Sequence record: NC_024124.2
Reading direction: 5' to 3' (one strand)
From: Escherichia phage vB_EcoM_JS09
DNA length: 64,000 bases
Below the pieces are notes generated by a model that made no database searches, was not told the DNA's origin, and saw only the letters and a program-made list of their open reading frames with translations. Shown here in pieces: positions 28,228-60,024 of the stretch (positions are counted from its first letter, which is position 1; each line of letters begins with the position of its first letter). A program made the position numbers and the translations under genes.

Positions 28228-30041
28228 AAATTGAAAAAGAAATTGAAGGATTAATTCATAAAACTAATAAAGATCTTTTGAACGAGAATGCTAATAAAGA
28301 TTCTCGTGTTTTTCCAACTCAACGGGACCTTATGGCTGGTATTGTGTCTAAGCACATTGCCAAAAATATGGTCCCGTCTTTTATTATGAAAGCACATGAA
28401 AGCGGAATTATCCATTTCCATGATATTGATTATTCCCCTGCTCTTCCATTTACTAATTGCTGTTTAGTAGATTTAAAAGGAATGCTTGAAAACGGGTTTA
28501 AGCTAGGTAATGCTCAAATTGAAACGCCTAAATCGATTGGTGTTGCTACTGCAATTATGGCACAAATTACCGCACAGGTTGCTTCACATCAGTACGGCGG
28601 AACGACTTTTGCTAATGTAGATAAAGTACTTTCTCCTTATGTTAAACGCACCTATGCAAAACATATTGAGGATGCAGAAAAATGGCAAATCGCTGATGCG
28701 TTGAATTATGCCCAATCTAAAACAGAAAAAGACGTATACGATGCATTTCAAGCTTATGAGTATGAAGTAAATACTCTTTTTAGCTCAAACGGTCAAACGC
28801 CTTTTGTAACAATTACATTTGGTACTGGAACTGACTGGACTGAACGAATTATTCAGAAAGCAATTCTTAAAAACCGCATTAAAGGCCTTGGTCGTGATGG
28901 AATAACTCCTATTTTCCCTAAACTTGTTATGTTCATTGAAGAGGGTGTCAATCTTTATAAAGACGACCCGAACTATGATATTAAGCAGCTTGCTCTAGAG
29001 TGTGCAAGCAAAAGAATGTATCCTGATATTATTTCAGTTAAGAACAATAAAGCTATCACTGGTTCATCTATTCCTGTTTCTCCAATGGGTTGTCGTAGTT
29101 TCTTGAGTGTATGGAAAGATTCGACTGGAAATGAAATTCTTGATGGACGTAATAATCTTGGTGTTGTAACACTGAATCTTCCTCGTATTGCGTTAGATTC
29201 TTATATTGGAACACAATTCAATGAACAGAAATTTGTTGAGCTATTTAATGAACGAATGGATCTGTGTTTTGAAGCCTTGATGTGTAGAATTAGTTCTTTA
29301 AAGGGTGTTAAAGCAACTGTTGCTCCTATTCTTTACCAAGAAGGTGCATTCGGGGTTCGTCTTAAACCTGATGACGATATAATTGAGTTATTTAAAAACG
29401 GTAGAAGTTCAGTGTCCTTAGGATACATTGGTATTCACGAATTGAATATTCTTGTCGGTCGTGATATTGGACAAGAAATTTTAACTAAAATGAATGCTCA
29501 TCTTAAGCAGTGGACTGAAAGAACCGGTTTTGCTTTTAGCTTGTATTCTACTCCTGCTGAAAACCTGTGCTATCGCTTCTGTAAACTTGATACCGAGAAA
29601 TATGGAAGTGTAAAAGATGTTACTGATAAAGGCTGGTACACTAATAGTTTCCATGTTTCAGTAGAAGAAAATATCACTCCGTTTGAAAAGATTTCTCGCG
29701 AAGCCCCATATCATTTCATTGCGACTGGCGGACATATTTCTTATGTTGAACTTCCTGATATGAAAAATAACCTAAAAGGTCTTGAGGCTGTATGGGATTA
29801 TGCTGCACAACATTTAGATTATTTTGGTGTTAATATGCCAGTAGATAAATGTTTTACATGTGGAAGTACTCATGAAATGACTCCTACTGAAACCGGATTT
29901 GTTTGTTCTATTTGTGGAGAAACTGACCCTAAAAAGATGAACACCATAAGAAGAACATGCGGTTATCTTGGAAATCCTAACGAACGCGGATTTAATCTCG
30001 GCAAAAATAAAGAAATCATGCATAGGGTTAAACACCAATGA
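28224..30041 (+). CDS. nrdD: anaerobic (class III) ribonucleotide reductase
   Basis: 605 aa with C-terminal glycyl-radical motif RRTCGYLGNP and Cys-rich zinc site; single uninterrupted ORF. Confidence 0.95.
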   Translation: MKIEKEIEGLIHKTNKDLLNENANKDSRVFPTQRDLMAGIVSKHIAKNMVPSFIMKAHESGIIHFHDIDYSPALPFTNCCLVDLKGMLENGFKLGNAQIETPKSIGVATAIMAQITAQVASHQYGGTTFANVDKVLSPYVKRTYAKHIEDAEKWQIADALNYAQSKTEKDVYDAFQAYEYEVNTLFSSNGQTPFVTITFGTGTDWTERIIQKAILKNRIKGLGRDGITPIFPKLVMFIEEGVNLYKDDPNYDIKQLALECASKRMYPDIISVKNNKAITGSSIPVSPMGCRSFLSVWKDSTGNEILDGRNNLGVVTLNLPRIALDSYIGTQFNEQKFVELFNERMDLCFEALMCRISSLKGVKATVAPILYQEGAFGVRLKPDDDIIELFKNGRSSVSLGYIGIHELNILVGRDIGQEILTKMNAHLKQWTERTGFAFSLYSTPAENLCYRFCKLDTEKYGSVKDVTDKGWYTNSFHVSVEENITPFEKISREAPYHFIATGGHISYVELPDMKNNLKGLEAVWDYAAQHLDYFGVNMPVDKCFTCGSTHEMTPTETGFVCSICGETDPKKMNTIRRTCGYLGNPNERGFNLGKNKEIMHRVKHQ

Positions 30042-30508
30042 ATTATGATAGATTTTATCCTTGCGATTTTGTGAATGGCCCTGGTTGCAGGGTCGTTCTT
30101 TTCGTTACAGGTTGTTTGCATAAATGCGAAGGGTGTTATAATAAATCAACATGGAACGCTAGAAATGGTATTCCATTCACGGGTGAAACACTAGAGCAAT
30201 TAATTGAATGTTTGAATAATGATTATATAGAAGGATTAACTATAACTGGAGGAGACCCTCTCTATCCCGATAACAGAGATGTTGTTCATTGCATTGCTCA
30301 AACAGTAAAAAATCTTTATCCCAATAAAAGCATTTGGTTGTGGACAGGATATAAGTTTGAAGATATTAAACAACTAGAAATGCTTAAATATGTTGATGTT
30401 ATTATTGATGGGAAGTATGAGAAAAATCTTCCGACTAAAAAGATGTGGCGAGGATCAGATAATCAGCGACTTTGGTCAAATACCGATGGGGTGTGGAAAC
30501 ATGATTAA
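30038..30508 (+). CDS. nrdG: anaerobic RNR activating enzyme (radical SAM)
   Basis: GCLHKCEGCYN radical-SAM Cys motif; ATGA overlap with nrdD. Confidence 0.9.
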   Translation: MNYDRFYPCDFVNGPGCRVVLFVTGCLHKCEGCYNKSTWNARNGIPFTGETLEQLIECLNNDYIEGLTITGGDPLYPDNRDVVHCIAQTVKNLYPNKSIWLWTGYKFEDIKQLEMLKYVDVIIDGKYEKNLPTKKMWRGSDNQRLWSNTDGVWKHD

Positions 30509-33940: not shown

Positions 33941-34498
33941 ATGACTGAACAAAAACCTAAAAATAACTATGTGAATAATAAAGAGCTTCTCGCCGCTATA
34001 ATCGAGTGGAAAAAGGAGCTCTTAAATAATAAAGACCCAAACAAAATTATTCGTCAGAATGATACCATCGGTTTAGCAATTATGCTTATCGCCGAAGGCC
34101 TGTCCAAACGTTTCAACTTTTCAGGATATACCCAGTCTTGGAAGCAGGAGATGATTGCAGATGGGATTGAAGCCTCTATTAAGGGACTTCATAATTTCGA
34201 CGAAACTAAGTACAATAACCCACATGCATACATAACTCGAGCTTGTTTTAATGCTTTTGTCCAACGTATCAAAAAAGAACGTAAGGAAGTTGCAAAGAAA
34301 TATAGTTACTTCGTTCATAATGTCTACGACAGTCATGACGATGATATGGTAGCGTTGGTAGATGAAACGTTTATTCAAGACATCTACGATAAAATGACGC
34401 ATTATGAAGAATCCGCTTATAAAGCTCCTGGGGCTGAAAAGAAGGAAGTTGTTAGCGATTCGCCTAGTTTGGATTTTTTATATGAGGATGACAATTGA
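33941..34498 (+). CDS. 55: late-transcription sigma factor gp55
   Basis: ...[78 protein letters not shown]... near-identical to T4 gp55 as recalled. Confidence 0.95.
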
Positions 34499-34697
34499 CA
34501 TCTCTAACTACTTAGAAGAACCTTTTGACGAAGCAATCCCTTATTTGGTAAAACTGTTGGGTCGTGAATTTAAAATTAATTTTGACATCGACCCTTTGAA
34601 CCCACATGACGTGTCATTTTCGATAAATGGGACTCCGGTTGAGTATGAGTTCTGTATTGAAGAGGATGGACGTTTTTATTTTAATTTAATGAGATAA
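34482..34697 (+). CDS. hypothetical protein (71 aa)
   Basis: ORF track trimmed to ATG at 34482 (ATG at 34488 is an alternative). Confidence 0.45.
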
Positions 34698-34698
34698 T

Positions 34699-35022
34699 AT
34701 GACTACCGAGATTATTGAAAATAAAGAAGCAGAAGATGCAGTAGCTAAAATGCTACAAGAAATCCAAAAGAAAAATGAAGCTGAAGCACGTAAAAAATCC
34801 GAAAAGATTCTTAAAAAGAATCGTTTTGAACTAAACCGTCTTTATGCTCATGCTCAAGAAGCAGCAATTCAAAACAACTTCGAAGCTTACGAATATGCTA
34901 TTAAGAAATCTCGGGATATTCTACGACAACCATACAATGACAAGTTAATTAAAATCCAGTGGGTTACTACTCGTCAGGCTATTGAGGACATCATTAATGG
35001 CGCTAGTTCAAACAAAGTTTAA
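34699..35022 (+). CDS. hypothetical protein (107 aa)
   Basis: ORF track. Confidence 0.55.
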   Translation: MTTEIIENKEAEDAVAKMLQEIQKKNEAEARKKSEKILKKNRFELNRLYAHAQEAAIQNNFEAYEYAIKKSRDILRQPYNDKLIKIQWVTTRQAIEDIINGASSNKV

Positions 35023-35203
35023 ACGTCTGAAGCTGAACGCAGGGTTCACCCTTAAATTGGGAGGTCCTCTTTGTGTTAAAATTTCTGAAAAGGAATATCA
35101 CGACGGTTCTATTACAGAAATTTGTCCGCCTATTGTAAAGGCAGACCCAAAACAACTCGTGTGGGTTGATTCATTTCAAGTTAAGAAATGGTGGAAACGA
35201 TGA
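34997..35203 (+). CDS. hypothetical protein (68 aa)
   Basis: ORF track frame trimmed to ATG at 34997; weak RBS. Confidence 0.4.
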   Translation: MALVQTKFKRLKLNAGFTLKLGGPLCVKISEKEYHDGSITEICPPIVKADPKQLVWVDSFQVKKWWKR

Positions 35204-35242
35204 GAGAAATCGATTTAGGTATTTTCTGAGAGGTGATTATGC

Positions 35243-35416
35243 ATGACGAACGACCCGACCTCTGAAAATTTCGATAAAATCCGTAAAGGCAAAGCAGAAA
35301 GAATGAGACGTTTTAAAGAGTCTTATGATAAAGCTAAAGCCGAAGGAACTATTACATACAAGCCCATTCGATTTAAAAGTTCAAATGAGCCTCTGTACGG
35401 TGTACTATGTGGATAG
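35243..35416 (+). CDS. hypothetical basic protein (57 aa)
   Basis: Not in ORF track; GAGGTGA upstream; ends just before a terminator. Confidence 0.4.
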   Translation: MTNDPTSENFDKIRKGKAERMRRFKESYDKAKAEGTITYKPIRFKSSNEPLYGVLCG

Positions 35417-35440
35417 GAACTCTTCGGAGTTCCTTTTTTG
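35417..35440 (+). terminator. intrinsic terminator with TTCG tetraloop
   Basis: GGAACTC-TTCG-GAGTTCC followed by TTTTTT. Confidence 0.75.
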
Positions 35441-35485
35441 CTTTATAAACGGATGATAGAATGAATTAACTAATGAGGAAATAAT

Positions 35486-36505
35486 ATGAAAATTTTAAAT
35501 TTAGGTGATTGGCATTTAGGTGTTAAAGCCGATGATGAGTGGGTTCAATCCATTCAGTTGGATGGAATTAAACAAGCAATAGAATATTCTAAGAAAAACG
35601 GAATTACTACATGGATTCAATATGGCGATATTTTTGATGTGCGAAAAGCAATCACACATAAAACTATGGAATTCGCCCGTGAAATAGTTCAAATGCTTGA
35701 TGATGCTGGTATTACACTACATACCGTTGTAGGAAACCATGATATGCACTTTAAAAATACTTTAACTCCAAATGCTTCTACTGAGCTTTTGGCTAAATAT
35801 CCTAATGTTAAAGTATATGATAAGCCTACTACAGTAGATTTTGACGGATGTTTGATTGATTTAATTCCTTGGATGTGCGAAGAAAATACAGGTGAAATCT
35901 TAGAGCACATCAAGACTTCTTCTGCCGCTTATTGTGTTGGGCACTGGGAACTGAATGGCTTTTATTTCTATAAAGGAATGAAGTCTCATGGGCTTGAACC
36001 TGATTTCTTAAAGACCTATAAACAAGTCTGGTCCGGCCACTTCCACACAATCTCTGAAGCTGCTAACGTCAAATATATTGGGACACCATGGACCCTTACT
36101 GCAGGCGATGAGAACGACCCGCGCGGATTCTGGGTATTTGACACTGATGTTGAACGTATGGAATTTATTCCTAATGAAACAACATGGCATCGACGAATCA
36201 CTTATCCATTTAAAGGCAAAATCAATTATTCTGATTATACTAATTTAGCCGTACGTGTTATAGTATCAGAAATTGATTCAGAGTTGACTAAGTTTGAATC
36301 TGAACTTGAAAAAGTAGTTCACTCTCTTCGTATGGTTTCTAAAGTTGATAACAGTGTTGAATCTGATGACGACCAGGAAATCGAGATTAAATCACTTCAA
36401 GATATCATTAAAGAATATATTGACGCGATTCCAGATATCTCAGACGAAGACAGAGAAGCGCTGGTTAAATATTCCAACGAACTTTATATTGAGGCAACAC
36501 AATGA
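35486..36505 (+). CDS. 47: recombination endonuclease subunit gp47 (Mre11-like)
   Basis: N-terminal LGDWHLG and GNHD calcineurin-like phosphoesterase motifs; 339 aa; precedes the Rad50-like gene. Confidence 0.9.
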   Translation: MKILNLGDWHLGVKADDEWVQSIQLDGIKQAIEYSKKNGITTWIQYGDIFDVRKAITHKTMEFAREIVQMLDDAGITLHTVVGNHDMHFKNTLTPNASTELLAKYPNVKVYDKPTTVDFDGCLIDLIPWMCEENTGEILEHIKTSSAAYCVGHWELNGFYFYKGMKSHGLEPDFLKTYKQVWSGHFHTISEAANVKYIGTPWTLTAGDENDPRGFWVFDTDVERMEFIPNETTWHRRITYPFKGKINYSDYTNLAVRVIVSEIDSELTKFESELEKVVHSLRMVSKVDNSVESDDDQEIEIKSLQDIIKEYIDAIPDISDEDREALVKYSNELYIEATQ

Positions 36506-42126: not shown

Positions 42127-44838
42127 ATGAAAGAATTTTACTTAACGGTTGAACAGATTGGTGATTCAATTTTTGAACGTTACATCGATTCTAACGGCCG
42201 TGAACGTACTCGTGAAGTAGAATATAAACCATCACTGTTTGCTCATTGTCCGGAAAGTCAGGCTACGAAATATTTCGATATCTACGGTAAGCCGTGTACT
42301 CGTAAGTTGTTCGCTAATATGCGTGATGCCTCACAATGGATTAAACGCATGGAAGATATCGGACTTGAAGCACTTGGCATGGACGATTTCAAATTGGCGT
42401 ATTTGTCTGACACTTATAACTATGAAATCAAATACGACCATACAAAAATTCGTGTGGCTAACTTCGACATCGAAGTAACATCTCCGGATGGGTTCCCTGA
42501 GCCGTCACAAGCAAAACATCCTATTGATGCTATCACTCATTATGACTCAATTGACGACAGGTTCTACGTATTTGATCTATTGAATTCTCCATATGGTAAT
42601 GTGGAAGAATGGTCTATCGAAATTGCAGCTAAGCTTCAAGAACAAGGTGGTGATGAAGTTCCATCCGAAATTATCGATAAAATCATTTATATGCCGTTCG
42701 ATAACGAAAAAGAATTGTTGATGGAATATCTCAACTTCTGGCAACAGAAAACTCCTGTCATTTTGACTGGATGGAACGTTGAGTCATTTGATATTCCATA
42801 TGTGTATAACCGAATCAAGAATATTTTTGGCGAATCTACTGCGAAACGTTTATCACCACATCGTAAAACTCGTGTTAAAGTTATCGAAAACATGTATGGT
42901 TCTCGTGAAATCATTACACTGTTCGGTATCTCTGTTCTTGATTACATTGACCTTTACAAAAAATTCTCTTTTACCAATCAACCGTCGTATTCTCTGGATT
43001 ACATTTCAGAATTTGAATTGAACGTTGGTAAACTGAAATATGACGGCCCTATTTCTAAGCTTCGTGAAAGCAATCACCAACGATATATTTCTTATAACAT
43101 TATCGACGTGTATCGTGTATTGCAAATTGATGCTAAGCGTCAGTTCATCAACTTGAGTTTGGACATGGGTTATTATGCTAAGATACAGATTCAATCCGTG
43201 TTTAGCCCAATTAAAACATGGGATGCTATTATTTTTAATAGCCTTAAAGAACAAAACAAGGTGATTCCACAAGGTCGTTCTCACCCGGTTCAACCTTATC
43301 CTGGCGCTTTTGTTAAGGAACCTATTCCAAATCGATACAAATATGTAATGAGTTTCGACCTTACATCTCTGTATCCAAGTATTATTCGCCAAGTGAATAT
43401 TAGCCCAGAAACAATAGCAGGAACGTTTAAAGTAGCTCCACTGCATGATTATATTAACGCAATCGCTGAACGTCCTTCAGATGTGTACAGTTGCTCTCCT
43501 AACGGCATGATGTATTATAAAGACCGTGATGGTGTAGTTCCAACTGAAATCACTAAGGTCTTTAATCAACGTAAAGAACATAAAGGTTACATGCTTGCAG
43601 CTCAACGTAATGGTGAAATAATTAAAGAGGCATTGCATAATCCTAATCTTTCTGTTGACGAACCATTAGATGTTGATTATCGTTTCGACTTCAGTGATGA
43701 GATTAAAGAAAAGATTAAAAAGTTGTCTGCTAAATCTCTTAATGAAATGTTGTTTAGAGCTCAACGTACTGAAGTTGCAGGTATGACTGCACAGATTAAC
43801 CGTAAATTGCTCATCAACTCACTTTATGGTGCACTTGGAAACGTTTGGTTCCGTTATTATGATTTGCGTAATGCTACTGCAATCACAACATTTGGTCAAA
43901 TGGCTTTACAGTGGATTGAACGTAAAGTTAATGAATATCTGAATGAAGTTTGTGGTACAGAAGGCGAAGCTTTCGTTCTTTATGGTGATACAGACTCTAT
44001 TTACGTATCTGCTGATAAAATTATCGATAAGGTTGGTGAATCTAAATTCCGTGATACCAACCATTGGGTAGACTTCTTAGATAAGTTCGCTCGTGAACGT
44101 ATGGAACCTGCTATTGATAGAGGTTTCCGTGAAATGTGCGAATACATGAACAATAAGCAACATTTGATGTTCATGGACCGAGAAGCTATCGCTGGGCCTC
44201 CGCTTGGTTCTAAAGGTATTGGCGGATTTTGGACTGGTAAGAAACGTTATGCATTAAACGTGTGGGATATGGAAGGTACTCGTTACGCTGAGCCTAAACT
44301 CAAAATCATGGGTCTAGAGACTCAGAAATCTTCGACTCCTAAAGCAGTACAGAAAGCTCTTAAAGAATGTATTCGTCGTATGCTTCAGGAAGGTGAAGAA
44401 TCATTACAAGAATATTTTAAAGAGTTTGAAAAAGAATTCCGTCAATTGAATTATATTAGCATCGCGTCGGTATCTTCTGCGAATAACATTGCTAAATACG
44501 ACGTCGGTGGATTCCCTGGTCCCAAATGCCCGTTCCATATTCGTGGAATTCTGACGTATAACCGGGCTATCAAAGGTAATATCGATGCACCGCAAGTTGT
44601 AGAAGGTGAAAAAGTATATGTTCTGCCTTTACGTGAAGGAAACCCATTCGGTGATAAATGTATCGCATGGCCTTCTGGCACTGAAATCACAGATTTAATT
44701 AAAGACGACGTACTTCATTGGATGGACTACACTGTTCTCCTTGAGAAGACATTTATTAAACCACTTGAAGGATTCACATCAGCAGCGAAACTCGATTACG
44801 AGAAGAAAGCATCTCTATTCGATATGTTCGATTTTTGA
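42127..44838 (+). CDS. 43: DNA polymerase gp43 (family B)
   Basis: 903 aa; exonuclease FDIE motif, polymerase motifs SLYPS and YGDTDS. Confidence 0.95.
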   Translation: MKEFYLTVEQIGDSIFERYIDSNGRERTREVEYKPSLFAHCPESQATKYFDIYGKPCTRKLFANMRDASQWIKRMEDIGLEALGMDDFKLAYLSDTYNYEIKYDHTKIRVANFDIEVTSPDGFPEPSQAKHPIDAITHYDSIDDRFYVFDLLNSPYGNVEEWSIEIAAKLQEQGGDEVPSEIIDKIIYMPFDNEKELLMEYLNFWQQKTPVILTGWNVESFDIPYVYNRIKNIFGESTAKRLSPHRKTRVKVIENMYGSREIITLFGISVLDYIDLYKKFSFTNQPSYSLDYISEFELNVGKLKYDGPISKLRESNHQRYISYNIIDVYRVLQIDAKRQFINLSLDMGYYAKIQIQSVFSPIKTWDAIIFNSLKEQNKVIPQGRSHPVQPYPGAFVKEPIPNRYKYVMSFDLTSLYPSIIRQVNISPETIAGTFKVAPLHDYINAIAERPSDVYSCSPNGMMYYKDRDGVVPTEITKVFNQRKEHKGYMLAAQRNGEIIKEALHNPNLSVDEPLDVDYRFDFSDEIKEKIKKLSAKSLNEMLFRAQRTEVAGMTAQINRKLLINSLYGALGNVWFRYYDLRNATAITTFGQMALQWIERKVNEYLNEVCGTEGEAFVLYGDTDSIYVSADKIIDKVGESKFRDTNHWVDFLDKFARERMEPAIDRGFREMCEYMNNKQHLMFMDREAIAGPPLGSKGIGGFWTGKKRYALNVWDMEGTRYAEPKLKIMGLETQKSSTPKAVQKALKECIRRMLQEGEESLQEYFKEFEKEFRQLNYISIASVSSANNIAKYDVGGFPGPKCPFHIRGILTYNRAIKGNIDAPQVVEGEKVYVLPLREGNPFGDKCIAWPSGTEITDLIKDDVLHWMDYTVLLEKTFIKPLEGFTSAAKLDYEKKASLFDMFDF

Positions 44839-44878: not shown

Positions 44879-45514
44879 ATGAAAACTACTCCTATTACTA
44901 TCGCTATTGACGCAATCATAAAACAAGCTTCTTCTTTGGCCGCTATGGCCAAAGTAATTAGTCAAAACCCTGCTCGTTATAATGCTATTCTAGAAACTCT
45001 TCGACGCCCTGGACTTAGTAATTATGAAAGTCGTGTAATTATTACAGGTGTTGGTAAGAACGCTAATATCGCAACTAAAGCTTCTGAGACATTTGCTTCA
45101 CTCGGTATCCCGAGTATGTACTTGAACACCGGGCATTATTCTCACGGTGATGCAGGATTCATTGCGCCTAATGATGTGTTGATTCATATTAGTCGTTCTG
45201 GTAAAACTGAAGAAATGATAGGCGTGGCTAAGCATCTTAAAACGATTCGTCCGAACGTCAAACAGATTCTGTTGCATTGTAACCCAGACATTCCACAAGA
45301 AAATGAAGCCCTTTTTGATTACTCTTTCTGTACAGGCATCGCAGTAGAGGTTGATGAGAATTCTCTGGCTCCGACCATGTCCACTACATTGTTGTTAGCG
45401 CTTATCGATACTTTTGCTATCAACCTTTCGTCTGAGCGTGGATTTACCTCTAATGACTTCCTTAAGTTCCACCCTGGCGGTGCACTAGGTGCCATGTTAC
45501 GAGGCGAACAATGA
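44879..45514 (+). CDS. SIS-domain sugar-phosphate isomerase, arabinose-5-phosphate isomerase-like
   Basis: RVIITGVGKNANIATKASETFASLGIP ... HGDAG resembles the KdsD/GutQ SIS core; no CBS domains. Confidence 0.75.
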   Translation: MKTTPITIAIDAIIKQASSLAAMAKVISQNPARYNAILETLRRPGLSNYESRVIITGVGKNANIATKASETFASLGIPSMYLNTGHYSHGDAGFIAPNDVLIHISRSGKTEEMIGVAKHLKTIRPNVKQILLHCNPDIPQENEALFDYSFCTGIAVEVDENSLAPTMSTTLLLALIDTFAINLSSERGFTSNDFLKFHPGGALGAMLRGEQ

Positions 45515-45654
45515 AAGCAATAACAATAGGACTTTTACTATTGATGCTTGTCATGACTATCTACTGGAGCTTAACGGCTCCAGTAATGATTCCAACACTT
45601 GTAATCGGATGGATTATGATTGGACTACAAGCAAAGTATGAATGCTTTAACTAG
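45511..45654 (+). CDS. possible small membrane protein (47 aa)
   Basis: Not in ORF track; MKAITIGLLLLMLVMTIYWSL... hydrophobic; ATGA overlap with the SIS gene. Confidence 0.4.
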   Translation: MKAITIGLLLLMLVMTIYWSLTAPVMIPTLVIGWIMIGLQAKYECFN

Positions 45655-45695
45655 AATAGTGTACAATACTCCTACTTACTAATGAGGACCACAAC

Positions 45696-47381
45696 ATGAA
45701 AAAAGCTGTTATTCTTGGTGCTGGACTGGCAACTCGTTTGTATCCAATAACGCATCATATTCCTAAGGTGCTTGTTAACTATAAACAAGACACTATTCTG
45801 AGCAATTTGTATACAATTTATTCTGACCTTGGTGCAGATGAAATTATTGTAGTAGTTCATTCAAAATTTGCTGAAACTGTTCGAGCTTATTGTGAGCAAG
45901 AAGGGTTCAATGTGACTATTCGTACAGTTGATGAAGCATATGGTTCTGCTTATGCTCTTGCTAAATTACACAAAGATTTAGACGGCCATAATGTAATTGT
46001 TAACTGGTGTGATATTATTCCTGATTTTGGTTCATGGTCTTGGAATGTTAACGCAATCTATGTTAAGGGTGACGAATGTCGATATAATTTCGACGGTGAA
46101 AATATCACTAACGTAGGTTCAACAGGTGGTAATGTTGTAGGAATTTATCAGTTCAAAGACTGGGAATTCTATATGGGTTCTACTGATGAGGAAATTCATG
46201 AATACTGCAAAGGACGTGATTTCGTAGAATTCCTTTACGGCAGCGCATTCAATAAATCAGAGCTTATGAATCTAATTGATTTAGGTGATATGCCTAAACT
46301 TGAAAAAGCTCATGAAGTTCGTGAACTTAATCGTAGTTTTAATGCAGTTGAAATTGGTGAAGAAACTGTAACTAAATTCGCATTAACCGAACAGGGCCGA
46401 GCTCTTCAGAAAGATGAGATTTCATGGTATCTTAAAGTGAAATCAGATTCAGTTCCTCAGTTAGTTTCTGTTAATGAAAATAACTTTGAAATGGAACGCA
46501 TTAAAGGTAAGCCGGCATTTGAATATATTAAATCCAAATCGAGTCTTGCTCGTCCACAAATTGTTGATGCAATTTTAGACGCACTGAAATTCAGCACAGA
46601 CACTTATTTTGTAAGTCCTGAAACTGTTCGTCGTGATTTCACTAAAGAATTCTATACGAAAGTTATTGATCGTTGTGAAAGCATTCAACCATTGATTGAT
46701 TCATTTGGTAAAATCACACATGTGAACTACACTAAGATTGGACGTCTGAAGCCAATGTTGAAACAAGCTTTAGAACACCTTATTCGTTATCATAACCGTT
46801 CTCAGGGACAGTACTCTGTTATTCATGGCGACCCGAACTTCAGTAATACTATGATTACTGATAATGGTGAAGTCAAGTTTATCGACCCTCGCGGATATTT
46901 TGGCGAAACCAAGATTTATGGGCCAAAATTGTATGATGAAGCTAAAGTGCTTTATGCTGTTTCAGGTTATGATGAATTCAACGCTAATCCGACCTGGGGA
47001 CAGTTTACTATTGATGAAACAACTTGTAATGTGACTATTAACATCAATCCATTAGTTTACAAATATGGAAAGATGAGTTCGTTTAACGAGTATCATCATT
47101 TGGCTGTAGCAATTATCTGGATTGCATTAGGTGGTTATTTCAAGAATAATCCACTTAAAGCGGTAGCCGCATATTATAAAGGTATGGAACTTCTGACTAA
47201 GCAATTACGTAACATGGGCCGTGTACTTCAGGACGGCTCTATTAGTTATGACGTAGCAGAACCTGTAACGGCTACTCTGATTACAAAAAATCCTGGTAAA
47301 TGGGTACTAACTGATAAAGAAACTGGTGTTTCCTATCGTCCAATCGGTGGCGATATCACTCATCAATGGGAACGAATCTAA
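45696..47381 (+). CDS. bifunctional sugar-1-phosphate nucleotidyltransferase / kinase (561 aa)
   Basis: N-terminal MKKAVILGAGLATRLYPIT (GlmU/RmlA/LicC-type NTase); C-terminal SVIHGDPNFSNTMITDNGEVKFIDPRGYFG (APH/choline-kinase-like kinase). Confidence 0.75.
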   Translation: MKKAVILGAGLATRLYPITHHIPKVLVNYKQDTILSNLYTIYSDLGADEIIVVVHSKFAETVRAYCEQEGFNVTIRTVDEAYGSAYALAKLHKDLDGHNVIVNWCDIIPDFGSWSWNVNAIYVKGDECRYNFDGENITNVGSTGGNVVGIYQFKDWEFYMGSTDEEIHEYCKGRDFVEFLYGSAFNKSELMNLIDLGDMPKLEKAHEVRELNRSFNAVEIGEETVTKFALTEQGRALQKDEISWYLKVKSDSVPQLVSVNENNFEMERIKGKPAFEYIKSKSSLARPQIVDAILDALKFSTDTYFVSPETVRRDFTKEFYTKVIDRCESIQPLIDSFGKITHVNYTKIGRLKPMLKQALEHLIRYHNRSQGQYSVIHGDPNFSNTMITDNGEVKFIDPRGYFGETKIYGPKLYDEAKVLYAVSGYDEFNANPTWGQFTIDETTCNVTININPLVYKYGKMSSFNEYHHLAVAIIWIALGGYFKNNPLKAVAAYYKGMELLTKQLRNMGRVLQDGSISYDVAEPVTATLITKNPGKWVLTDKETGVSYRPIGGDITHQWERI

Positions 47382-47767
47382 TGCACCGTGTAGAAAACAT
47401 GCTTAATCTTTGTTTTGATGTCGATGATTGTATAACAGAGTGGAATAACAATCGTGATTACGTGAACTTCAAACCAGACGTCGAAATGGTGACTGCCATT
47501 AATGCCCTGTATGATGCAGGGCATACAATAACGCTTTACACTGCTCGCGGTATGAAGTCAGTCGGTCCTGGTCGTATAGCAATTGACATTCTCCCAAGTC
47601 TGATTCAGAACTTGGCAAACATTGGATTGAAGTACCATAATTTGCTAACACATAAACCAGTATATGATTGGATTATCGACGACAAAGCTATGCGTCCTGA
47701 CGAATTCAAAGCTCTTATGAATAAAGGCGAATTCGAAACATTTAAATCATATAAACCGAATCTATAA
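47381..47767 (+). CDS. HAD-like phosphatase (128 aa)
   Basis: N-terminal CFDVDDCIT resembles HAD motif I; start trimmed to ATG at 47381 (TAATG overlap). Confidence 0.5.
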   Translation: MHRVENMLNLCFDVDDCITEWNNNRDYVNFKPDVEMVTAINALYDAGHTITLYTARGMKSVGPGRIAIDILPSLIQNLANIGLKYHNLLTHKPVYDWIIDDKAMRPDEFKALMNKGEFETFKSYKPNL

Positions 47768-47821
47768 TAATTTAAGTAAGACCTGCAAAAACCATCGCAA
47801 CAATTAACGCGAGATGCAAAA

Positions 47822-48982
47822 ATGAATACCTTTAAAATCGGAACGAATTTTGATTTAGCTCTTCTTGATAAAATCGTAGAGCTCAATAAAACTTATCCTA
47901 ATAGCTTGATAAACGAAGTATACGGCTCTACAAGAGAAATGGCTTTTGTAGCAGCCAGACCTGATTTTAGGCTTCCTGACGTTGACAAAAAGATGTTAGA
48001 AGATTACGTTAAACGTTGTAACGAATTAGGTATTTGCTTTAACTATACACTCAACACGATAAATCCTGGTTCAAAAAGAGAACTAGTTGAGTGGAAGAAG
48101 AAAGCTATTCAGGATTATGTTCAGTATCTTTGGTCAATAGGCGTATGGCGTATTACTATCGCTAACCCTGTTGTTATGGAAATTGTTCGTGAAGTCAATA
48201 AAGACATTGAGATTGAAGTTTCAACAATTCTACATGTCGATGCTGTAACTCAAATCAAATACTTGCATGACCAGTATAATATCAAAAAGGTCTGCTGTGG
48301 AATTCATAAGAACCGTTCAGTTTCTTTCCTGAAGCGTGCAGCAGAGTTTTGCAATAAGAACAATATAATATTTGAAGTTCTTGTAAATGAGTTCTGTTCT
48401 AATGCTGGTAAAGGGTATACAACACATTGTAGCTATCGTGACTCTTGCTATATTTTCCATAGTACTGATGTTACAGCTGATGATGCTAAATCCTTAAACG
48501 GATATCCTATGCAGCACTGTATTAAAGCTCGTGATACAGACCCATTTAACTGGTTGAGAACTCGTTTTGTTCGCCCCCAAGATTTGAAACTTTATAATGA
48601 TATTGGTATCACTCAATTTAAAGTTTCGGGACGTACAGGTAGCACCGACTACATTTTGAAAGTTCTTGAAGCTTATGCTTCTGAAAAGTTTGAAGGTAAT
48701 TTGTTGGAATTGTGGAAGCCTTTAGAGACCATTTTCACTCTTGAAAATGAGACAGAGTTTTCACATACAGTAAATATTGAAACCTCTTTGTTAGATGGCT
48801 TTTTAGAAAAAAGGTGGTTCAGACATCCAGATTTCGATTGTGCTAATGAAATCTGCGGGACGACGTGTACATATTGTGAAAGATATTATAAACGTCAATT
48901 ATCTAAAAACGGGTTAGCAGAAAACTCTATATCTATTATTGATATAACTAACTCTGATGACGCTTTGAGGTACCCGGAATGA
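47822..48982 (+). CDS. Cys-rich U32-family-like protein, possible Fe-S enzyme (386 aa)
   Basis: Cys clusters NEFCSNAGKGYTTHCSYRDSCY and CANEICGTTCTYCERYY; overall resemblance to peptidase-U32 (RlhA/UbiU-type) proteins is from recollection only. Confidence 0.55.
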   Translation: MNTFKIGTNFDLALLDKIVELNKTYPNSLINEVYGSTREMAFVAARPDFRLPDVDKKMLEDYVKRCNELGICFNYTLNTINPGSKRELVEWKKKAIQDYVQYLWSIGVWRITIANPVVMEIVREVNKDIEIEVSTILHVDAVTQIKYLHDQYNIKKVCCGIHKNRSVSFLKRAAEFCNKNNIIFEVLVNEFCSNAGKGYTTHCSYRDSCYIFHSTDVTADDAKSLNGYPMQHCIKARDTDPFNWLRTRFVRPQDLKLYNDIGITQFKVSGRTGSTDYILKVLEAYASEKFEGNLLELWKPLETIFTLENETEFSHTVNIETSLLDGFLEKRWFRHPDFDCANEICGTTCTYCERYYKRQLSKNGLAENSISIIDITNSDDALRYPE

Positions 48983-49140
48983 TTTCTAGAAAAACTTTTA
49001 ACCACCAACTTAACGAAGAGATTTTGACTATGAAACTGAACACTAATGAACAAATTCTTAAAAAGGCCCTGATGGGCCTGTTTGAAACTAAAGCGGCTAA
49101 AGTGATTAAAGAAACCTGTTCAATTGGAATACTACGCTGA
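48979..49140 (+). CDS. hypothetical small protein (53 aa)
   Basis: Not in ORF track; ATGA overlap. Confidence 0.35.
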   Translation: MISRKTFNHQLNEEILTMKLNTNEQILKKALMGLFETKAAKVIKETCSIGILR

Positions 49141-49261
49141 TGCATTTCTTCATAGTGTTCTTGGAAGTATCGATGCTGAAGCTTTACGTTATATCAACAT
49201 TGTCAAGAAATTCAAATAAGCTTTACGAATTGAGTATATAATAAATTGTATTGAGGTAAAC

Positions 49262-49978
49262 ATGGGAAAACATAACACAATGAAATATATCAAAGCCGCA
49301 GATTTTCAAACCGCATTTAAAGCAGTCAATCGTGAAATTTTAGAAAACCCGGAATTCGTAACTGATTCTCGTATTGGACGTTGTAATGAAATTGGGTCTA
49401 TGACAGTAGTTGTTGACACTCCATCATCATTCAAAATGACCGACCCACGTATTAACCGCATCTCTTATGAATATGCCGAAGACTTCTGGAAGTTTATGAT
49501 TTCTGGTGGTACCAACGCAGAAGAAGCGTTTAAGGCATATCCTAATGTCGCTAAATTTATTTCTAAACCAAAATCAGATGTTTTGCCGGCGAACTTCAAC
49601 ACTTTCTATGGTCCTCGCATTGCGGCCCAATTACCAGCTCTTCTAAAAGAACTTAAAGAGAAGCCTAACTCCCGAAGAGTTGTGTTCCAAATTCTAGAAA
49701 GTTCTGATCAGGCTTTGCTTGATTCAGACGAAACGCTTGAATATCCATGTACTGACTCAGTGACTTATTATATTCGTGATGGTAAGCTTTATACCCACTG
49801 TCATATGCGTTCTCAGAACTGTGCTGTTGTTATGCAGTTGGATTTTTATCTCCAAGGAAAATTACTTCATTATATCGCTAACGAATGTGGTGTAGAAGTT
49901 GGTGATTATACTCATACCATGGTAAGTGCCCATGTGTTTGAACGTGATTTTGATTATGTTAAAGGATTCCTTGACTAA
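49262..49978 (+). CDS. 42: dCMP hydroxymethylase-like (thymidylate synthase fold)
   Basis: EYPCTDSVTYYIRDGKLYTHCHMRSQN...D aligns with the T4 gp42 core around the catalytic Cys and Asp; 238 aa. Confidence 0.65.
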   Translation: MGKHNTMKYIKAADFQTAFKAVNREILENPEFVTDSRIGRCNEIGSMTVVVDTPSSFKMTDPRINRISYEYAEDFWKFMISGGTNAEEAFKAYPNVAKFISKPKSDVLPANFNTFYGPRIAAQLPALLKELKEKPNSRRVVFQILESSDQALLDSDETLEYPCTDSVTYYIRDGKLYTHCHMRSQNCAVVMQLDFYLQGKLLHYIANECGVEVGDYTHTMVSAHVFERDFDYVKGFLD

Positions 49979-50877
49979 TGGCTATTTTCCGCGTACCTAT
50001 TTTGAGTATGCGGTCTTATGAAACTGGACAGTATGCTATCCTTAAGGATGGCAACTTCCAACTTCATTTGCACCGTGCTAATCCAGGTGATGTGATTACA
50101 TATCCACGTAATGCATCTGATATTAAAGAATGCGAACGTCTTTTTCCGGAATTTAAGTTTGTTCCATTATGGTATAAAGATAACGCGTATAACACTCGTA
50201 AATATTTCTGGTCTGAAAATGAATTTGTGGTTGATTCATTAATTGCTTATTATGATTGTGATTTTCTAATCACAGATATCACTGGATATGATGGCGCTTT
50301 TGACGTAGAATTCAATTTCAATATCACTGCAGACCCTAATAAACCACGTTTTTATATTGATGAATTCTTAAAAACCGACATGTTGTCTGTTAATCGTTCA
50401 CTTCAAACTACTGTGTTGAATGAACGTCAAAAAGAAGTGCTGGTTAACGCAGGTGCAGATGGTAATAAGATTATCGTAACACAGAAAGTTATACGTCCTT
50501 CCGTCATGCAGCGTCTTGTAGGTGATTTGGCTCCTATTCATCTAGATGGTATTTTTCATCCATTTCGAATTAGTGACCCATGCTATCGTTTTGAACAAGT
50601 GGTTGAATGCGCAATTCAATTAGGTCAACCGCTTTATATAACTGATCCAAATAATAGTTTCGACAGAAATAAGTATCCTGAAGAAGCGCTGATTCGAATT
50701 TTTAATCCAACTAAAACTGAGTACTATCAAATTCTTAAAGGACGTCCGAAGATTCAATATTTCGAAAATCCTGAAGAAGTATTCCATCCAGGTCTTGGTG
50801 AGTTCATCTACTTTAATGCTTTAATTTCTTCGCCGTATAATATACCTAAATACGAAGATGTCGTAATCGAGGAATAA
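49978..50877 (+). CDS. hypothetical protein (299 aa), candidate DNA sugar transferase by position
   Basis: Occupies the slot between gene 42 and uvsX where T4 has beta-glucosyltransferase; no motif recognised. Confidence 0.55.
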   Translation: MAIFRVPILSMRSYETGQYAILKDGNFQLHLHRANPGDVITYPRNASDIKECERLFPEFKFVPLWYKDNAYNTRKYFWSENEFVVDSLIAYYDCDFLITDITGYDGAFDVEFNFNITADPNKPRFYIDEFLKTDMLSVNRSLQTTVLNERQKEVLVNAGADGNKIIVTQKVIRPSVMQRLVGDLAPIHLDGIFHPFRISDPCYRFEQVVECAIQLGQPLYITDPNNSFDRNKYPEEALIRIFNPTKTEYYQILKGRPKIQYFENPEEVFHPGLGEFIYFNALISSPYNIPKYEDVVIEE

Positions 50878-50878
50878 A

Positions 50879-51427
50879 ATGGCTAAAATTATTTTAGTAG
50901 ATGGCCCGGATAATGCCGGTAAAACAACTTTCATTAATGACATAATGGAAATTAGTGAAAGATATGTAAAGATTGATTTCCCTAAACGAACAGTTGATGG
51001 ACGTTTCGATGTTAAGTCTCGAAATGAAGTTGGCTGTTTCGAAACGATGTTGAATTATTTAGACCCTACTAAGATTTATCTGTTAGACCGTGGATATATT
51101 AGTAACTGGGTTTATGGACGTATTCGACAAGATGTGGACTCGGTTCTTGACGTTTATGAACAGGATTATGTTCGTCTTTGCCAAAACCATGATGTGTTCA
51201 CAATTATTTTAACACGTAACGAAATGACTGAAAGTTTTGAAGACGACCTTATTACTTTGTCTTCATTCGGTTTTAATACAGTCATTTCATATTTTGAAGA
51301 GTTTGCAATTCATAACAAAATCCAAACGTATCAATTACTTAATCATGACGGTGCTAACAAAGTTATAGGATTTAATGCAAGCGAACGTAATTATTTGATT
51401 ACAGAAATTATCAAATGGGCTCGTTAA
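50879..51427 (+). CDS. P-loop nucleotide/nucleoside kinase-like (182 aa)
   Basis: Walker A VDGPDNAGKTTF typical of thymidylate/dNMP-kinase-like enzymes. Confidence 0.6.
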   Translation: MAKIILVDGPDNAGKTTFINDIMEISERYVKIDFPKRTVDGRFDVKSRNEVGCFETMLNYLDPTKIYLLDRGYISNWVYGRIRQDVDSVLDVYEQDYVRLCQNHDVFTIILTRNEMTESFEDDLITLSSFGFNTVISYFEEFAIHNKIQTYQLLNHDGANKVIGFNASERNYLITEIIKWAR

Positions 51428-51527: not shown

Positions 51528-52700
51528 ATGTCTGATTTAAAATCTCGTCTGATTAAAGCTTCTACTTCTAAAATGACTGCAGACTTGACTAAGTCTAAGC
51601 TGTTTAATAATCGTGATGAAGTCCCTACTCGTATTCCGATGTTGAATATTGCATTAGGTGGTGCACTGAATGCAGGGTTGCAATCAGGCTTAACTATTTT
51701 TGCTGCTCCTTCTAAACACTTTAAAACGTTGTTTGGACTAACTATGGTTGCAGCATATATGAAGAAATATAAAGATGCAATCTGTTTGTTTTATGACTCA
51801 GAATTCGGTGCTTCAGAATCTTATTTTCGTTCAATGGGTGTTGATTTAGACCGTGTAGTTCATACGCCAATTCAGTCCGTCGAACAACTTAAAGTTGATA
51901 TGACTAATCAGCTTGACGCGATTGAACGCGGTGATAAAGTTATTATCTTTATCGATTCAATCGGTAATACTGCATCTAAGAAAGAAACCGAAGATGCGTT
52001 GAACGAGAAAGTTGTAGGTGATATGTCTCGTGCTAAGGCACTTAAATCTCTTTTCCGTATTGTGACTCCTTATCTGACTATTAAAGATATTCCGTGTGTT
52101 GCAATTAACCATACCGCAATGGAAATTGGTGGATTGTATCCTAAAGAGATTATGGGCGGTGGTACAGGTATTCTTTATTCTGCCAACACGGTATTTTTTA
52201 TCTCTAAACGTCAGGTTAAAGAAGGTACAGAATTGACCGGTTATGACTTCACGTTGAAAGCAGAAAAATCTCGCACCGTTAAAGAAAAATCTACTTTCCC
52301 AATCACGGTTAATTTTGATGGTGGTATCGACCCATTCAGCGGCTTGCTAGAAATGGCAACCGAAATTGGTTTTGTAGTTAAGCCTAAAGCCGGTTGGTAT
52401 GCTCGTGAATTCCTTGACGAAGAAACAGGTGAAATGATTCGTGAAGAGAAATCGTGGCGTGCTAAAGCTACTGATTGTGTAGAATTCTGGGGACCTTTGT
52501 TTAAACACAAACCTTTCCGAGATGCAATTGAAACTAAATATAAACTAGGTGCTATCTCTTCTATTAAAGAAGTTGATGATGCTGTTAACGACCTTATTAA
52601 TTGCAAAGCAACAACTAAAGTTCCGGTTAAAACTTCTGATGCTCCGTCTGCAGCAGATATAGAAAACGACCTTGACGAAATGGAAGATTTCGATGAATAA
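51528..52700 (+). CDS. uvsX: recombinase UvsX (RecA-like)
   Basis: MSDLKSRLIKASTSKMTADLTKSKLFNNRDEVPTRIPMLNIALGG... near-identical to T4 UvsX as recalled; 390 aa. Confidence 0.95.
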   Translation: MSDLKSRLIKASTSKMTADLTKSKLFNNRDEVPTRIPMLNIALGGALNAGLQSGLTIFAAPSKHFKTLFGLTMVAAYMKKYKDAICLFYDSEFGASESYFRSMGVDLDRVVHTPIQSVEQLKVDMTNQLDAIERGDKVIIFIDSIGNTASKKETEDALNEKVVGDMSRAKALKSLFRIVTPYLTIKDIPCVAINHTAMEIGGLYPKEIMGGGTGILYSANTVFFISKRQVKEGTELTGYDFTLKAEKSRTVKEKSTFPITVNFDGGIDPFSGLLEMATEIGFVVKPKAGWYAREFLDEETGEMIREEKSWRAKATDCVEFWGPLFKHKPFRDAIETKYKLGAISSIKEVDDAVNDLINCKATTKVPVKTSDAPSAADIENDLDEMEDFDE

Positions 52701-59502: not shown

Positions 59503-60024
59503 ATGGCACACTTTAACGAATGTTCACAACTTATTTCTGGTGTTGATAAAGCAGAAGAAGCTTATTTTAATGCTCTGATTCACGAAGATAAAGACCCACT
59601 TCAGGTAATGCTTGATATGCAGAAATCTTTACAGGTTCGTTTGGCAAATGACAAGCCTGAACATAACAAACATCCTGATGAATTGGCCACTGCAGGCGAC
59701 GTTGTTGATTGGCTGCGTAATCAGAAAGATTATATTGATGATGAATTCCGTGAACTGCTGACTTCACTTGGTGGTATGAGCAATGGTGAAAAAGCCGCCA
59801 GCAGTGTATGGAAGCCGTGGAAAGCACAACATGCTGAATATCGTAATCGTCGTATCGATGAACTGTCTCCTGAAGACCAGCTTGAAATTAAATTTGAGAT
59901 GATTGATATTCTGCACTTCGTTCTGAACATGTTCCAAGGTCTGGGTCTTTCTGCTGAAGAAATCTTTAAACTTTACTACTTGAAAAACCAACACAACTTT
60001 GAACGCCAGGATAATGGTTACTGA
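59503..60024 (+). CDS. 56: dCTP pyrophosphatase gp56 (MazG-like)
   Basis: MAHFNECSQLISGVDKAEEAYFNALIHEDKDPLQVMLDMQ... near-identical to T4 gp56 as recalled; start trimmed to 59503. Confidence 0.95.
   Translation: MAHFNECSQLISGVDKAEEAYFNALIHEDKDPLQVMLDMQKSLQVRLANDKPEHNKHPDELATAGDVVDWLRNQKDYIDDEFRELLTSLGGMSNGEKAASSVWKPWKAQHAEYRNRRIDELSPEDQLEIKFEMIDILHFVLNMFQGLGLSAEEIFKLYYLKNQHNFERQDNGY

Follow-up and report, generated by a model that had tools for sequence, protein, structure and literature searches.

Gene content of the region between gene 43 and uvsX

The window analysed here is a stretch of 64,000 nucleotides from Escherichia phage vB_EcoM_JS09 (sequence record NC_024124.2), and the region under study (44879-51427) is the gene cluster between the gene 43 DNA polymerase and uvsX. 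A first-pass annotation, made from the letters alone, had described seven open reading frames (ORFs) there and read them as a sugar-nucleotide biosynthesis cluster. All seven were found on the + strand at the positions collected in Table 1, and the motifs quoted for them are present in the translations; two further small ORFs (45511-45654 and 48979-49219) had been overlooked. The region belongs to Mosigvirus (RB69-like), its best nucleotide relative being 98.5% identical, and protein comparison showed the cluster proteins to be 97-100% identical to their counterparts in RB69, HY126 and NRG-P0074. Because 150 phage records, all from RB69-like Mosigviruses, match at least 80% of the cluster length at 95-99% DNA identity, the cluster is no chance arrangement, and its synteny is common to RB69, HY126 and ten other genera.

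On sequence grounds, this region is very probably a Mosigvirus module of the RB69/HY126 type that replaces the cytosine of the phage DNA by 5-O-arabinosyl-5-hydroxycytosine, and nothing in the sequence contradicts such a pathway. The earlier prediction that a nucleotide-activated sugar other than glucose is put on a modified cytosine was borne out, the sugar being arabinose, as in RB69 and HY126. Identity with the RB69 cluster had been held to be undecidable from sequence; the protein identities given above decide it in the affirmative. The cluster as such is a re-discovery of the published RB69-type system and is already known, the arabinosyl-5-hydroxycytosine pathway of RB69 and HY126 being treated by Thomas (2018), Mahler (2025), He (2026) and Lee (2026).

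Table 1. Positions of the cluster genes and of other features of the window discussed in the text.
Feature	Position	Strand	Remarks
SIS arabinose-5-phosphate isomerase (predicted), RB69 gp55 ortholog	44879-45514	+	211 amino acids (aa); ribulose-5-phosphate to arabinose-5-phosphate
Small hydrophobic ORF, RB69 ORF054c-like	45511-45654	+	47 aa; overlaps the SIS stop codon by 4 nt
Bifunctional arabinose-5-phosphate 1-kinase/UDP-arabinose pyrophosphorylase (predicted), AfhE/RB69 gp52:53 ortholog	45696-47381	+	561 aa
HAD-type phosphatase (predicted), AfhF/RB69 gp51 ortholog	47366-47767	+	133 aa; arabinofuranose-1,5-bisphosphate to arabinofuranose-1-phosphate
U32-family Fe-S protein, RB69 gp50 ortholog	47822-48982	+	386 aa; Pfam Peptidase_U32
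RB69 ORF049c homolog	48979-49219	+	frameshifted; 53-aa ORF ending at 49140; 79 aa in relatives
Thymidylate-synthase-fold flavin/O2-dependent dCMP 5-hydroxylase (5-hydroxy-dCMP synthase; predicted), RB69 gp48 ortholog	49262-49978	+	238 aa; Pfam Thymidylat_synt
GT-B (GT4-like) glycosyltransferase, RB69 gp46:47 ortholog	49978-50877	+	299 aa; predicted first arabinosyltransferase, on the 5-hydroxyl
Thymidylate-kinase-like P-loop nucleotide kinase, RB69 gp45 ortholog	50879-51427	+	182 aa
gp43 DNA polymerase	42127-44838		upstream flank of the cluster
UvsX	51528-52700		downstream flank of the cluster
gp55	33941-34498		border of the 55-to-47 interval
gp47	35486-36505		border of the 55-to-47 interval
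55-to-47 interval	34499-35485	+	four small ORFs: 97, 107, 73 and 57 aa
NrdD	28224-30041	+	anaerobic ribonucleotide reductase
NrdG	30038-30508	+	its activase
gp56 dCTPase/dUTPase	59503-60024	+	outside the cluster; 97% identical to RB69 gp56; Pfam dUTPase_2

In gene content and gene order the cluster agrees with the RB69 gp45-gp55 and HY126 Afh clusters, which likewise lie between gene 43 and uvsX; when the literature was searched for the Afh gene names, Lee et al. was the one paper returned. The cluster differs from the GenBank record of RB69, which splits 052/053 and 046/047, in that both genes are intact in the window; the 052/053 split was shown to be a sequencing error by Thomas et al. (PMC6024577), and both splits by Lee et al. 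(PMC13326640). Further differences within the RB69 type are the frameshift of ORF049c in the window and the absence from it of the homing endonuclease of NRG-P0074.

The thymidylate synthase homolog and the modified base

The first-pass annotation had called the 238-aa protein a deoxycytidine monophosphate (dCMP) hydroxymethylase-like enzyme and had taken hydroxymethylcytosine (hmC) for the acceptor base, and on both points it has to be corrected. The protein was 98% identical to the HY126 enzyme crystallised under PDB 9iqc, 9ir2 and 9iqu (5 differences in 238 residues; 7.9e-161) and only 25% identical to T4 gp42. Aligned to E. coli ThyA it has E143, C146, R166, N169 and D177, the same residues as in 16 phage homologs, whereas T4 gp42 retains Asp at the position-169 equivalent (MRSND). 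D169N is diagnostic of 5-hydroxy-dCMP synthases (Lee et al. 2026, PMC13326640), and the window protein is, by its sequence, such a synthase and not a hydroxymethylase. In RB69, gp48 turns dCMP into 5-hydroxy-dCMP with bound flavin and with oxygen from O2, as 18O2 incorporation demonstrated; nuclear magnetic resonance (NMR) and mass spectrometry (MS) identified the DNA base as 5-hydroxycytosine (5hoC), not hmC, with arabinose joined to C5 by an ether bond through the hydroxyl oxygen, in mono- and di-arabinosylated forms (PMC13326640).

In the base branch, gp56 would convert dCTP to dCMP, so that only modified dCTP is incorporated. The ThyA-fold enzyme would hydroxylate dCMP at C5 with flavin and O2, as shown for the RB69 and HY126 orthologs, and a deoxynucleoside monophosphate (dNMP) kinase encoded outside the window would lead to 5-hydroxy-dCTP, to be incorporated by the polymerase. 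Since this hydroxylation requires O2 and dCTP is removed by gp56, anoxia of the cell would leave an RB69-type phage without a C-type deoxynucleoside triphosphate unless it had another route. The phage is equipped for DNA precursor synthesis without O2, as it encodes NrdD and NrdG (Pfam NRDD at 8e-171, Gly_radical, Fer4_12 and Radical_SAM).

It should be noted that in metagenomic phage contigs of other myoviruses (L030-L033; e.g. L031:6739-9594) a Flavodoxin_2 gene (FMN-reductase-like) is followed by ThyA(N169), glycosyltransferase and P-loop kinase genes. The order of the first two looks like a two-component flavin monooxygenase arrangement; Mosigvirus clusters are without a Flavodoxin_2-type reductase gene.

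Synthesis of the sugar donor

The SIS protein, 100% identical to that of RB69, matched Pfam SIS (6.6e-11) and, in NCBIfam, KpsF/GutQ (1.4e-32) and KdsD (7e-31); the KpsF/GutQ/KdsD matches, from 1e-32 to 6e-23, lie below the full-length cut-offs and span only about the first 200 of the 268-328 profile positions. Its PDB matches, 3etn (1.4e-25), 5uqi and 2xhz, include solved arabinose-5-phosphate isomerases. These matches agree with the starting point proposed at first pass, and the isomerase, by homology, would convert ribulose-5-phosphate into arabinose-5-phosphate.

The 561-aa protein had been recognised as a fusion of a nucleotidyltransferase and a kinase, and this was upheld: Pfam NTP_transferase matched its N-terminal 100 residues (8.5e-10), weak kinase matches fell at residues 344-409, PDB 1jyk was matched at 2e-5, and the protein was 97% identical to HY126 AfhE over its full length. 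Judged from these matches, its N-terminal domain is a nucleotidyltransferase and its C-terminal domain an APH/choline-kinase-like kinase. The 133-aa protein is the HAD phosphatase that it had been taken for, being about 99% identical to PDB 9iqw (2e-87), related to 1xpj, and matched by the NCBIfam capsule biosynthesis phosphatase EcbF/BcbF (4.6e-13); its true start is probably the ATG at 47381.

In the route drawn at first pass, dephosphorylation preceded anomeric phosphorylation. The order is the reverse in HY126, according to the account of He et al. (2026) given in PMC13326640: AfhE phosphorylates arabinose-5-phosphate at C1 to the 1,5-bisphosphate, AfhF strips the 5-phosphate, and AfhE then forms UDP-arabinofuranose. 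In the window, the kinase domain at the C-terminus of the 561-aa protein would likewise give arabinofuranose-1,5-bisphosphate, the HAD phosphatase would take off the 5-phosphate, and the N-terminal nucleotidyltransferase domain would produce UDP-arabinofuranose, all three steps having been shown for the HY126 proteins (via Lee et al.).

The genes of this branch vary between phages. Klebsiella phage Potts1 (L006) and Escherichia phage dhaeg (L020) are without the SIS isomerase gene, dhaeg also without the U32 gene; such phages presumably draw on host KdsD/GutQ for arabinose-5-phosphate. A homing endonuclease gene directly follows the kinase/nucleotidyltransferase gene in NRG-P0074 (L001:5488-6249) and another lies between the HAD and U32 genes in PEi26 (L011:4352-4990) and CBH8 (L012:4352-4990); none was found in the cluster of the window. 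The 47-aa ORF (45511-45654), which is strongly hydrophobic, had no match in a Pfam search. Its motif PVMIPTL...LQAKY.CFN recurs at the same size and place in seven loci from several genera, and the ORF is kept between the isomerase and kinase/nucleotidyltransferase genes in Mosigvirus, Mosugukvirus, Tegunavirus, Kanagawavirus, Winklervirus and Kagamiyamavirus.

Transfer of arabinose

The 299-aa protein had been listed as an unknown at the beta-gt slot. It does occupy that slot, and it can be identified: fold matching gave a GT-B fold, with the HY126 glycosyltransferase 9iqz among the matches. PDB sequence searches returned no match for this protein, for the U32 protein or for the P-loop kinase. 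The predicted GT-B arabinosyltransferase lies directly downstream of the hydroxylase and is followed by the thymidylate kinase (TMK)-like kinase, all three between gene 43 and uvsX. It would add the first arabinose to the 5-hydroxyl, on DNA or on a nucleotide; the role of RB69 gp46:47 as first transferase is itself a prediction, with either nucleotide or DNA as acceptor (PMC13326640). The P-loop kinase noted at first pass was confirmed by PHROG 761, thymidylate kinase (7.9e-45), along with a weak dTMP-kinase P-loop match.

The transferase and TMK-like kinase genes were adjacent in every lineage examined, so that the kinase is a fixed partner of the transferase. This adjacency is kept although 5-hydroxy-dCMP is already a substrate of the phage's gp1-type dNMP kinase (Lee et al., PMC13326640), and single glycosyltransferases were inactive on 5hoC-DNA (Lee et al. 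2026, PMC13326640). For these reasons, the mononucleotide may be the acceptor of the first arabinose, with the dedicated TMK-like kinase then phosphorylating the product.

The inactivity of single transferases on 5hoC-DNA also counts against the pathway as drawn here. So does the fact that the number of arabinoses is not readable from the window, the second transferase gene lying outside it. In RB69 this second transferase is ORF003c, next to rIIA (PMC13326640), and an enzyme of its type would add the second arabinose. No ORF003c-type homolog was found in the 64-kb window; RB69 synteny puts the gene about 8 kb past the window end, and the absence is therefore uninformative for the genome.

The modification explains the resistance of RB69-type phages to many restriction enzymes and CRISPR nucleases, and their different recognition by type IV and glycosylase defences. 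For annotation, the consequence is that 5-hydroxycytosine replaces hmC, a hydroxylase replaces the hydroxymethylase, and the kinase acts before the phosphatase.

Comparison with T4 and with other arabinosylation clusters

The T4 glucosyl-hmC system (gp42, gp56, gp1, alpha-gt and beta-gt) resembles the present one in having a dCTPase, a ThyA-fold dCMP-modifying enzyme, a kinase, incorporation by the polymerase and a GT-B sugar transferase, and it uses the same genomic slot, where T4 has imm.1, imm, 42, beta-gt and segA. The two systems differ in the group placed on the base (hydroxymethyl in T4, hydroxyl here), in the chemistry (folate/water against flavin/O2), in the key residue (Asp against Asn169) and in the sugar, which is taken from host UDP-glucose in T4 and is arabinofuranose from a phage-made UDP-sugar here. 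No homolog of alpha-gt, beta-gt or another T4-type glucosyltransferase was found in the window, and the 55-to-47 interval, for which the first-pass annotation had noted the lack of an alpha-gt-sized gene, contains the small ORFs of Table 1 only.

The clusters of Acinetobacter phages of the DLP3/Lazarusvirus type and of Pseudomonas phage PspYZU05 have SIS, nucleotidyltransferase/kinase, HAD, ThyA(N169), glycosyltransferase and TMK-like kinase genes in the same order as the window. By contrast, they are without U32 and without chorismate mutase, and the Acinetobacter phage clusters have two further glycosyltransferases, for a third arabinose.

Two other readings of the pathway were weighed. In the model of 2018, shared by the first-pass annotation, the ThyA homolog acts as a dCMP hydroxymethylase, and hydroxymethylcytosine carries the arabinose. 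Thomas et al. (2018, PMC6024577), who found arabinose in RB69 DNA and pointed to the polymerase-UvsX module as the likely source of UDP-arabinose, named the base ara-hmC; dCMP hydroxymethylase annotations stand in some GenBank records, and the window enzyme and T4 gp42 do have the ThyA fold and the dCMP-specifying Asp177 in common. Against this stand Asn169 in the window protein versus Asp in T4 gp42 and the low identity of the two, its near-identity to the crystallised HY126 enzyme, and the ether link to C5 and 18O2 incorporation established for RB69 (PMC13326640), and we regard an hmC acceptor as very improbable. For this isolate a different sugar might be entertained, arabinose having been determined in RB69 and HY126; but the enzymes of the cluster all show 97-100% identity to their counterparts in those two phages, and we regard this reading, too, as very improbable. 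The arabinosyl-5-hydroxycytosine pathway is the reading retained below.

A U32-family protein at the centre of the cluster

The gene at 47822-48982 had been described as encoding a Cys-rich U32-like protein, with no role given to it. The family assignment stood: Pfam PF01136 (Peptidase_U32) matched residues 94-286 (7.3e-11; 42.2 bits against a cut-off of 22.4). The U32 protein was the best conserved protein of the cluster, with 79-87% identity from Escherichia to Shewanella phages. In the same cross-genus comparison, the hydroxylase reached 71-83%, the transferase, both kinases and the nucleotidyltransferase 40-73%, and the flanking replication proteins 64-89%. Ten cysteines were invariant among 56 U32 homologs, down to 46% identity, namely C158, C177, C192, C203, C209 and C233 together with a C-terminal C340-x4-C345-x3-C349-x2-C352 motif.

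The U32 gene was kept beside the hydroxylase, glycosyltransferase and kinase genes in at least ten genera. As far as the 220 U32-bearing records are listed, they come from phages whose hosts are Enterobacterales or Shewanella, bacteria that are facultative anaerobes. The gene was not seen in the Acinetobacter and Pseudomonas cluster regions examined, and phages of Acinetobacter (57 records) and Rhizobium (20 records), which have the ThyA homolog, were absent among the 220 U32-bearing records. A strict rule by which every phage of a facultative anaerobe has U32 was rejected, as E. coli Dhakavirus dhaeg is without U32; in Klebsiella phage Potts1, U32 is present and chorismate mutase absent.

In other phage lineages, a gene matching Pfam CM_2 (chorismate mutase) above the gathering threshold lies between the U32 and hydroxylase genes. 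This was seen in nine loci, from Kanagawavirus (two phages), Mosugukvirus, Gualtarvirus, Tegunavirus, Bragavirus, Winklervirus, Kagamiyamavirus and Shewanella phage Thanatos-2; the last of these has a rearranged cluster, yet there too the chorismate mutase comes directly after U32. The invariant residues of the phage chorismate mutases have the spacing of the EcCM catalytic residues R11, R28, K39, E52, S84 and Q88. Chorismate mutase was present in only 56 of the 50,697 phage records, all but one from phages of Enterobacterales or Shewanella (the odd one is an unclassified phage record from human faeces), and wherever position or annotation was checked the gene lay at this cluster.

Homologs of the U32 protein at 48-58% identity are common in metagenomic phage contigs, and all six of the contexts fetched were deoxynucleotide or DNA-modification neighbourhoods. 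The neighbours were dCMP deaminase, TMK, UDG and Pol III alpha in L017 and L027; deoxyribonucleotidase, deoxynucleoside kinase and nucleoside deoxyribosyltransferase in L018; ThyX and dCMP deaminase in L029; and, in L028, a TET-associated glycosyltransferase (TAGT) directly beside U32, a dUTPase-family protein and UDP-galactopyranose mutase. In L026, L028 and L029 the U32 gene adjoins a homolog of the 299-aa transferase (E-values 3e-38, 2e-26 and 7e-35, respectively) and a weak P-loop kinase homolog, with no ThyA homolog within 7 kb of U32; in L026, U32 is followed by a gene for a DAHP synthase, which scored 237 bits, the KDO8P synthase score being 63. Four other phage contigs have Flavodoxin_2, ThyA(N169), transferase and kinase genes without U32. 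From the U32-only and ThyA-only contigs it follows that the transferase-kinase pair is the constant element, its partner being a ThyA-type hydroxylase, U32 or both.

Contig L018 (13227-14360) has two divergent U32 genes, scoring 566 and 112 bits against the subfamily profile, the second with a radical-SAM/SPASM gene just upstream and a nucleoside deoxyribosyltransferase gene downstream; it may represent a more elaborate anaerobic nucleotide-modification cluster.

A possible oxygen-independent route to 5-hydroxycytosine

Characterised U32 proteins offer a precedent. RlhA makes 5-hydroxycytidine (ho5C2501) in 23S rRNA and requires prephenate and Fe-S clusters (PMC5727448), and TrhP makes 5-hydroxyuridine (ho5U34) in tRNA (PMC6599085). 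For UbiU/UbiV, prephenate was shown genetically to be the oxygen donor, a role only proposed for RlhA and TrhP (PMC10990095). The phage U32 protein resembles RlhA, TrhP, UbiU and UbiV in its Peptidase_U32 domain, in part of its conserved cysteines and in its genomic link to prephenate supply (chorismate mutase, DAHP synthase), and the 5-hydroxypyrimidine product that its context leads one to expect would be of the same chemistry as that of RlhA. It differs from these proteins in its extra C-terminal CX4CX3CX2C motif and in its presumed substrate, a deoxynucleotide or DNA and not RNA or quinone.

On the basis of genomic context and family precedent, we tentatively propose, with somewhat less than an even chance of being right, that the U32 protein is an O2-independent, prephenate-dependent C5-hydroxylase of deoxycytidylate or of cytosine in DNA. 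Such an enzyme would take the hydroxyl oxygen from prephenate and constitute a second route to 5-hydroxycytosine, allowing this base to be made when the host is anoxic and the flavin/O2 enzyme thus out of action; a chorismate mutase or DAHP synthase beside U32 would feed the prephenate supply. No relevant paper came up when the literature was searched for phage DNA modification in connection with U32 proteins or prephenate.

Several observations weigh against this proposal. The phage protein is only 17-22% identical to E. coli UbiU, UbiV, RlhA and TrhP, and cysteines 1, 3 and 4 of the canonical 4Fe-4S motif (CX6CX15CX3-4C type) align in it while the second is Gly. The Mosigviruses, including the phage of the window, are without chorismate mutase, which they have lost while retaining U32, and E. 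coli Dhakavirus dhaeg has the pathway without U32. Moreover, no U32 protein has been found to have direct hydroxylase activity in vitro (PMC10990095), and Lee et al. label RB69 gp50 a 'sugar or heterocycle reductase' in their Table 1, without discussion (PMC13326640).

That label represents a reading in which U32 is an enzyme of the sugar branch, or a reductase, and not a base hydroxylase. The U32 gene does sit between the sugar and base genes, and in L026 its homolog adjoins an epimerase and a choline-kinase-like protein. However, the Acinetobacter and Pseudomonas phages have SIS, nucleotidyltransferase/kinase, HAD, ThyA, glycosyltransferase and kinase genes without U32, and Acinetobacter phage DLP3 makes arabinosyl-5hoC (Lee et al., PMC13326640). 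A sugar or reductase role would also leave unexplained the adjacent chorismate mutase or DAHP synthase and the far higher conservation of U32 than of the sugar enzymes, and the characterised U32 proteins are tied to hydroxylations, not reductions; we consider this role unlikely. A further reading would have U32, with chorismate mutase in other genera, hydroxylate RNA, for example U34 of phage or host tRNA or a position in rRNA, its place in the cluster being incidental. The only characterised pyrimidine-modifying U32 proteins, TrhP and RlhA, do act on RNA, and T4-like phages encode tRNAs of their own. Yet U32 stays with the DNA-modification genes across its genera, its distant homologs adjoin genes for dCMP deaminase, deoxynucleoside kinase, deoxyribonucleotidase, TMK, UDG and DNA glycosyltransferase homologs, and the phage protein is without DUF3656 and the C-terminal extensions of RlhA, so that an RNA substrate appears decidedly improbable.

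If U32 is a prephenate-dependent hydroxylase, DNA metabolism would have its first U32 enzyme, and many Straboviridae would have two routes to 5-hydroxycytosine, the flavin/O2 ThyA-type enzyme for oxic hosts and U32 for anoxic ones, a duality paralleled by UbiI/H/F and UbiU/V, by TrhO and TrhP, and by the phage's own NrdAB and NrdDG. In many uncultured phages U32 would be the only hydroxylase feeding DNA glycosylation, and the phage chorismate mutases would be auxiliary genes supplying the oxygen donor. Modification without oxygen would thereby be explained for phages of gut bacteria that have an anaerobic ribonucleotide reductase; the oxygen-donor chemistry, itself of recent recognition, would extend from RNA and quinones to DNA precursors, and U32 enzymology would gain a small, soluble and easily assayed nucleotide substrate.

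The phage systems that combine TET/JBP dioxygenases with TAGTs provide another likeness, as they too place a hydroxyl handle on a pyrimidine C5 substituent and then glycosylate it, and in contig L028 the two families meet, the TAGT lying directly beside the U32 homolog. TET enzymes are Fe/2-oxoglutarate- and O2-dependent and act on 5-methylcytosine in DNA. These systems differ from the cluster of the window in that the latter has no TET.

The ORF049c homolog and divergence from relatives

Downstream of the U32 gene, the ORF049c homolog carries one extra A at 49112-49114, which, by alignment with NRG-P0074, shifts the frame. Because ORF049c is also truncated or in two pieces in HY126, AV116, ECCR664 and SSE1, it looks dispensable or prone to slippage. 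That it might be a degenerate chorismate mutase was considered and rejected, as it had no Pfam match, no BLAST similarity and an hhalign probability of 0.1%, and as ORF049c-like ORFs coexist with a true mutase in Yersinia phage TG1, Pectobacterium phage PM2 and Serratia phage 92A1.

Finally, the window aligned with MZ560701.1 (vB_EcoM_TU01) at about 98% identity, its positions being shifted throughout by exactly 96,000 bases (1-25000 to 96001-121000; 44879-51427 to 140879-147427), so that over 51 kb there is no net indel despite about 2% substitutions. The differences of the cluster genes from RB69 are mostly synonymous, U32 for example differing at 22 nucleotides but only 2 amino acids, and for this reason the divergence from RB69 looks natural.

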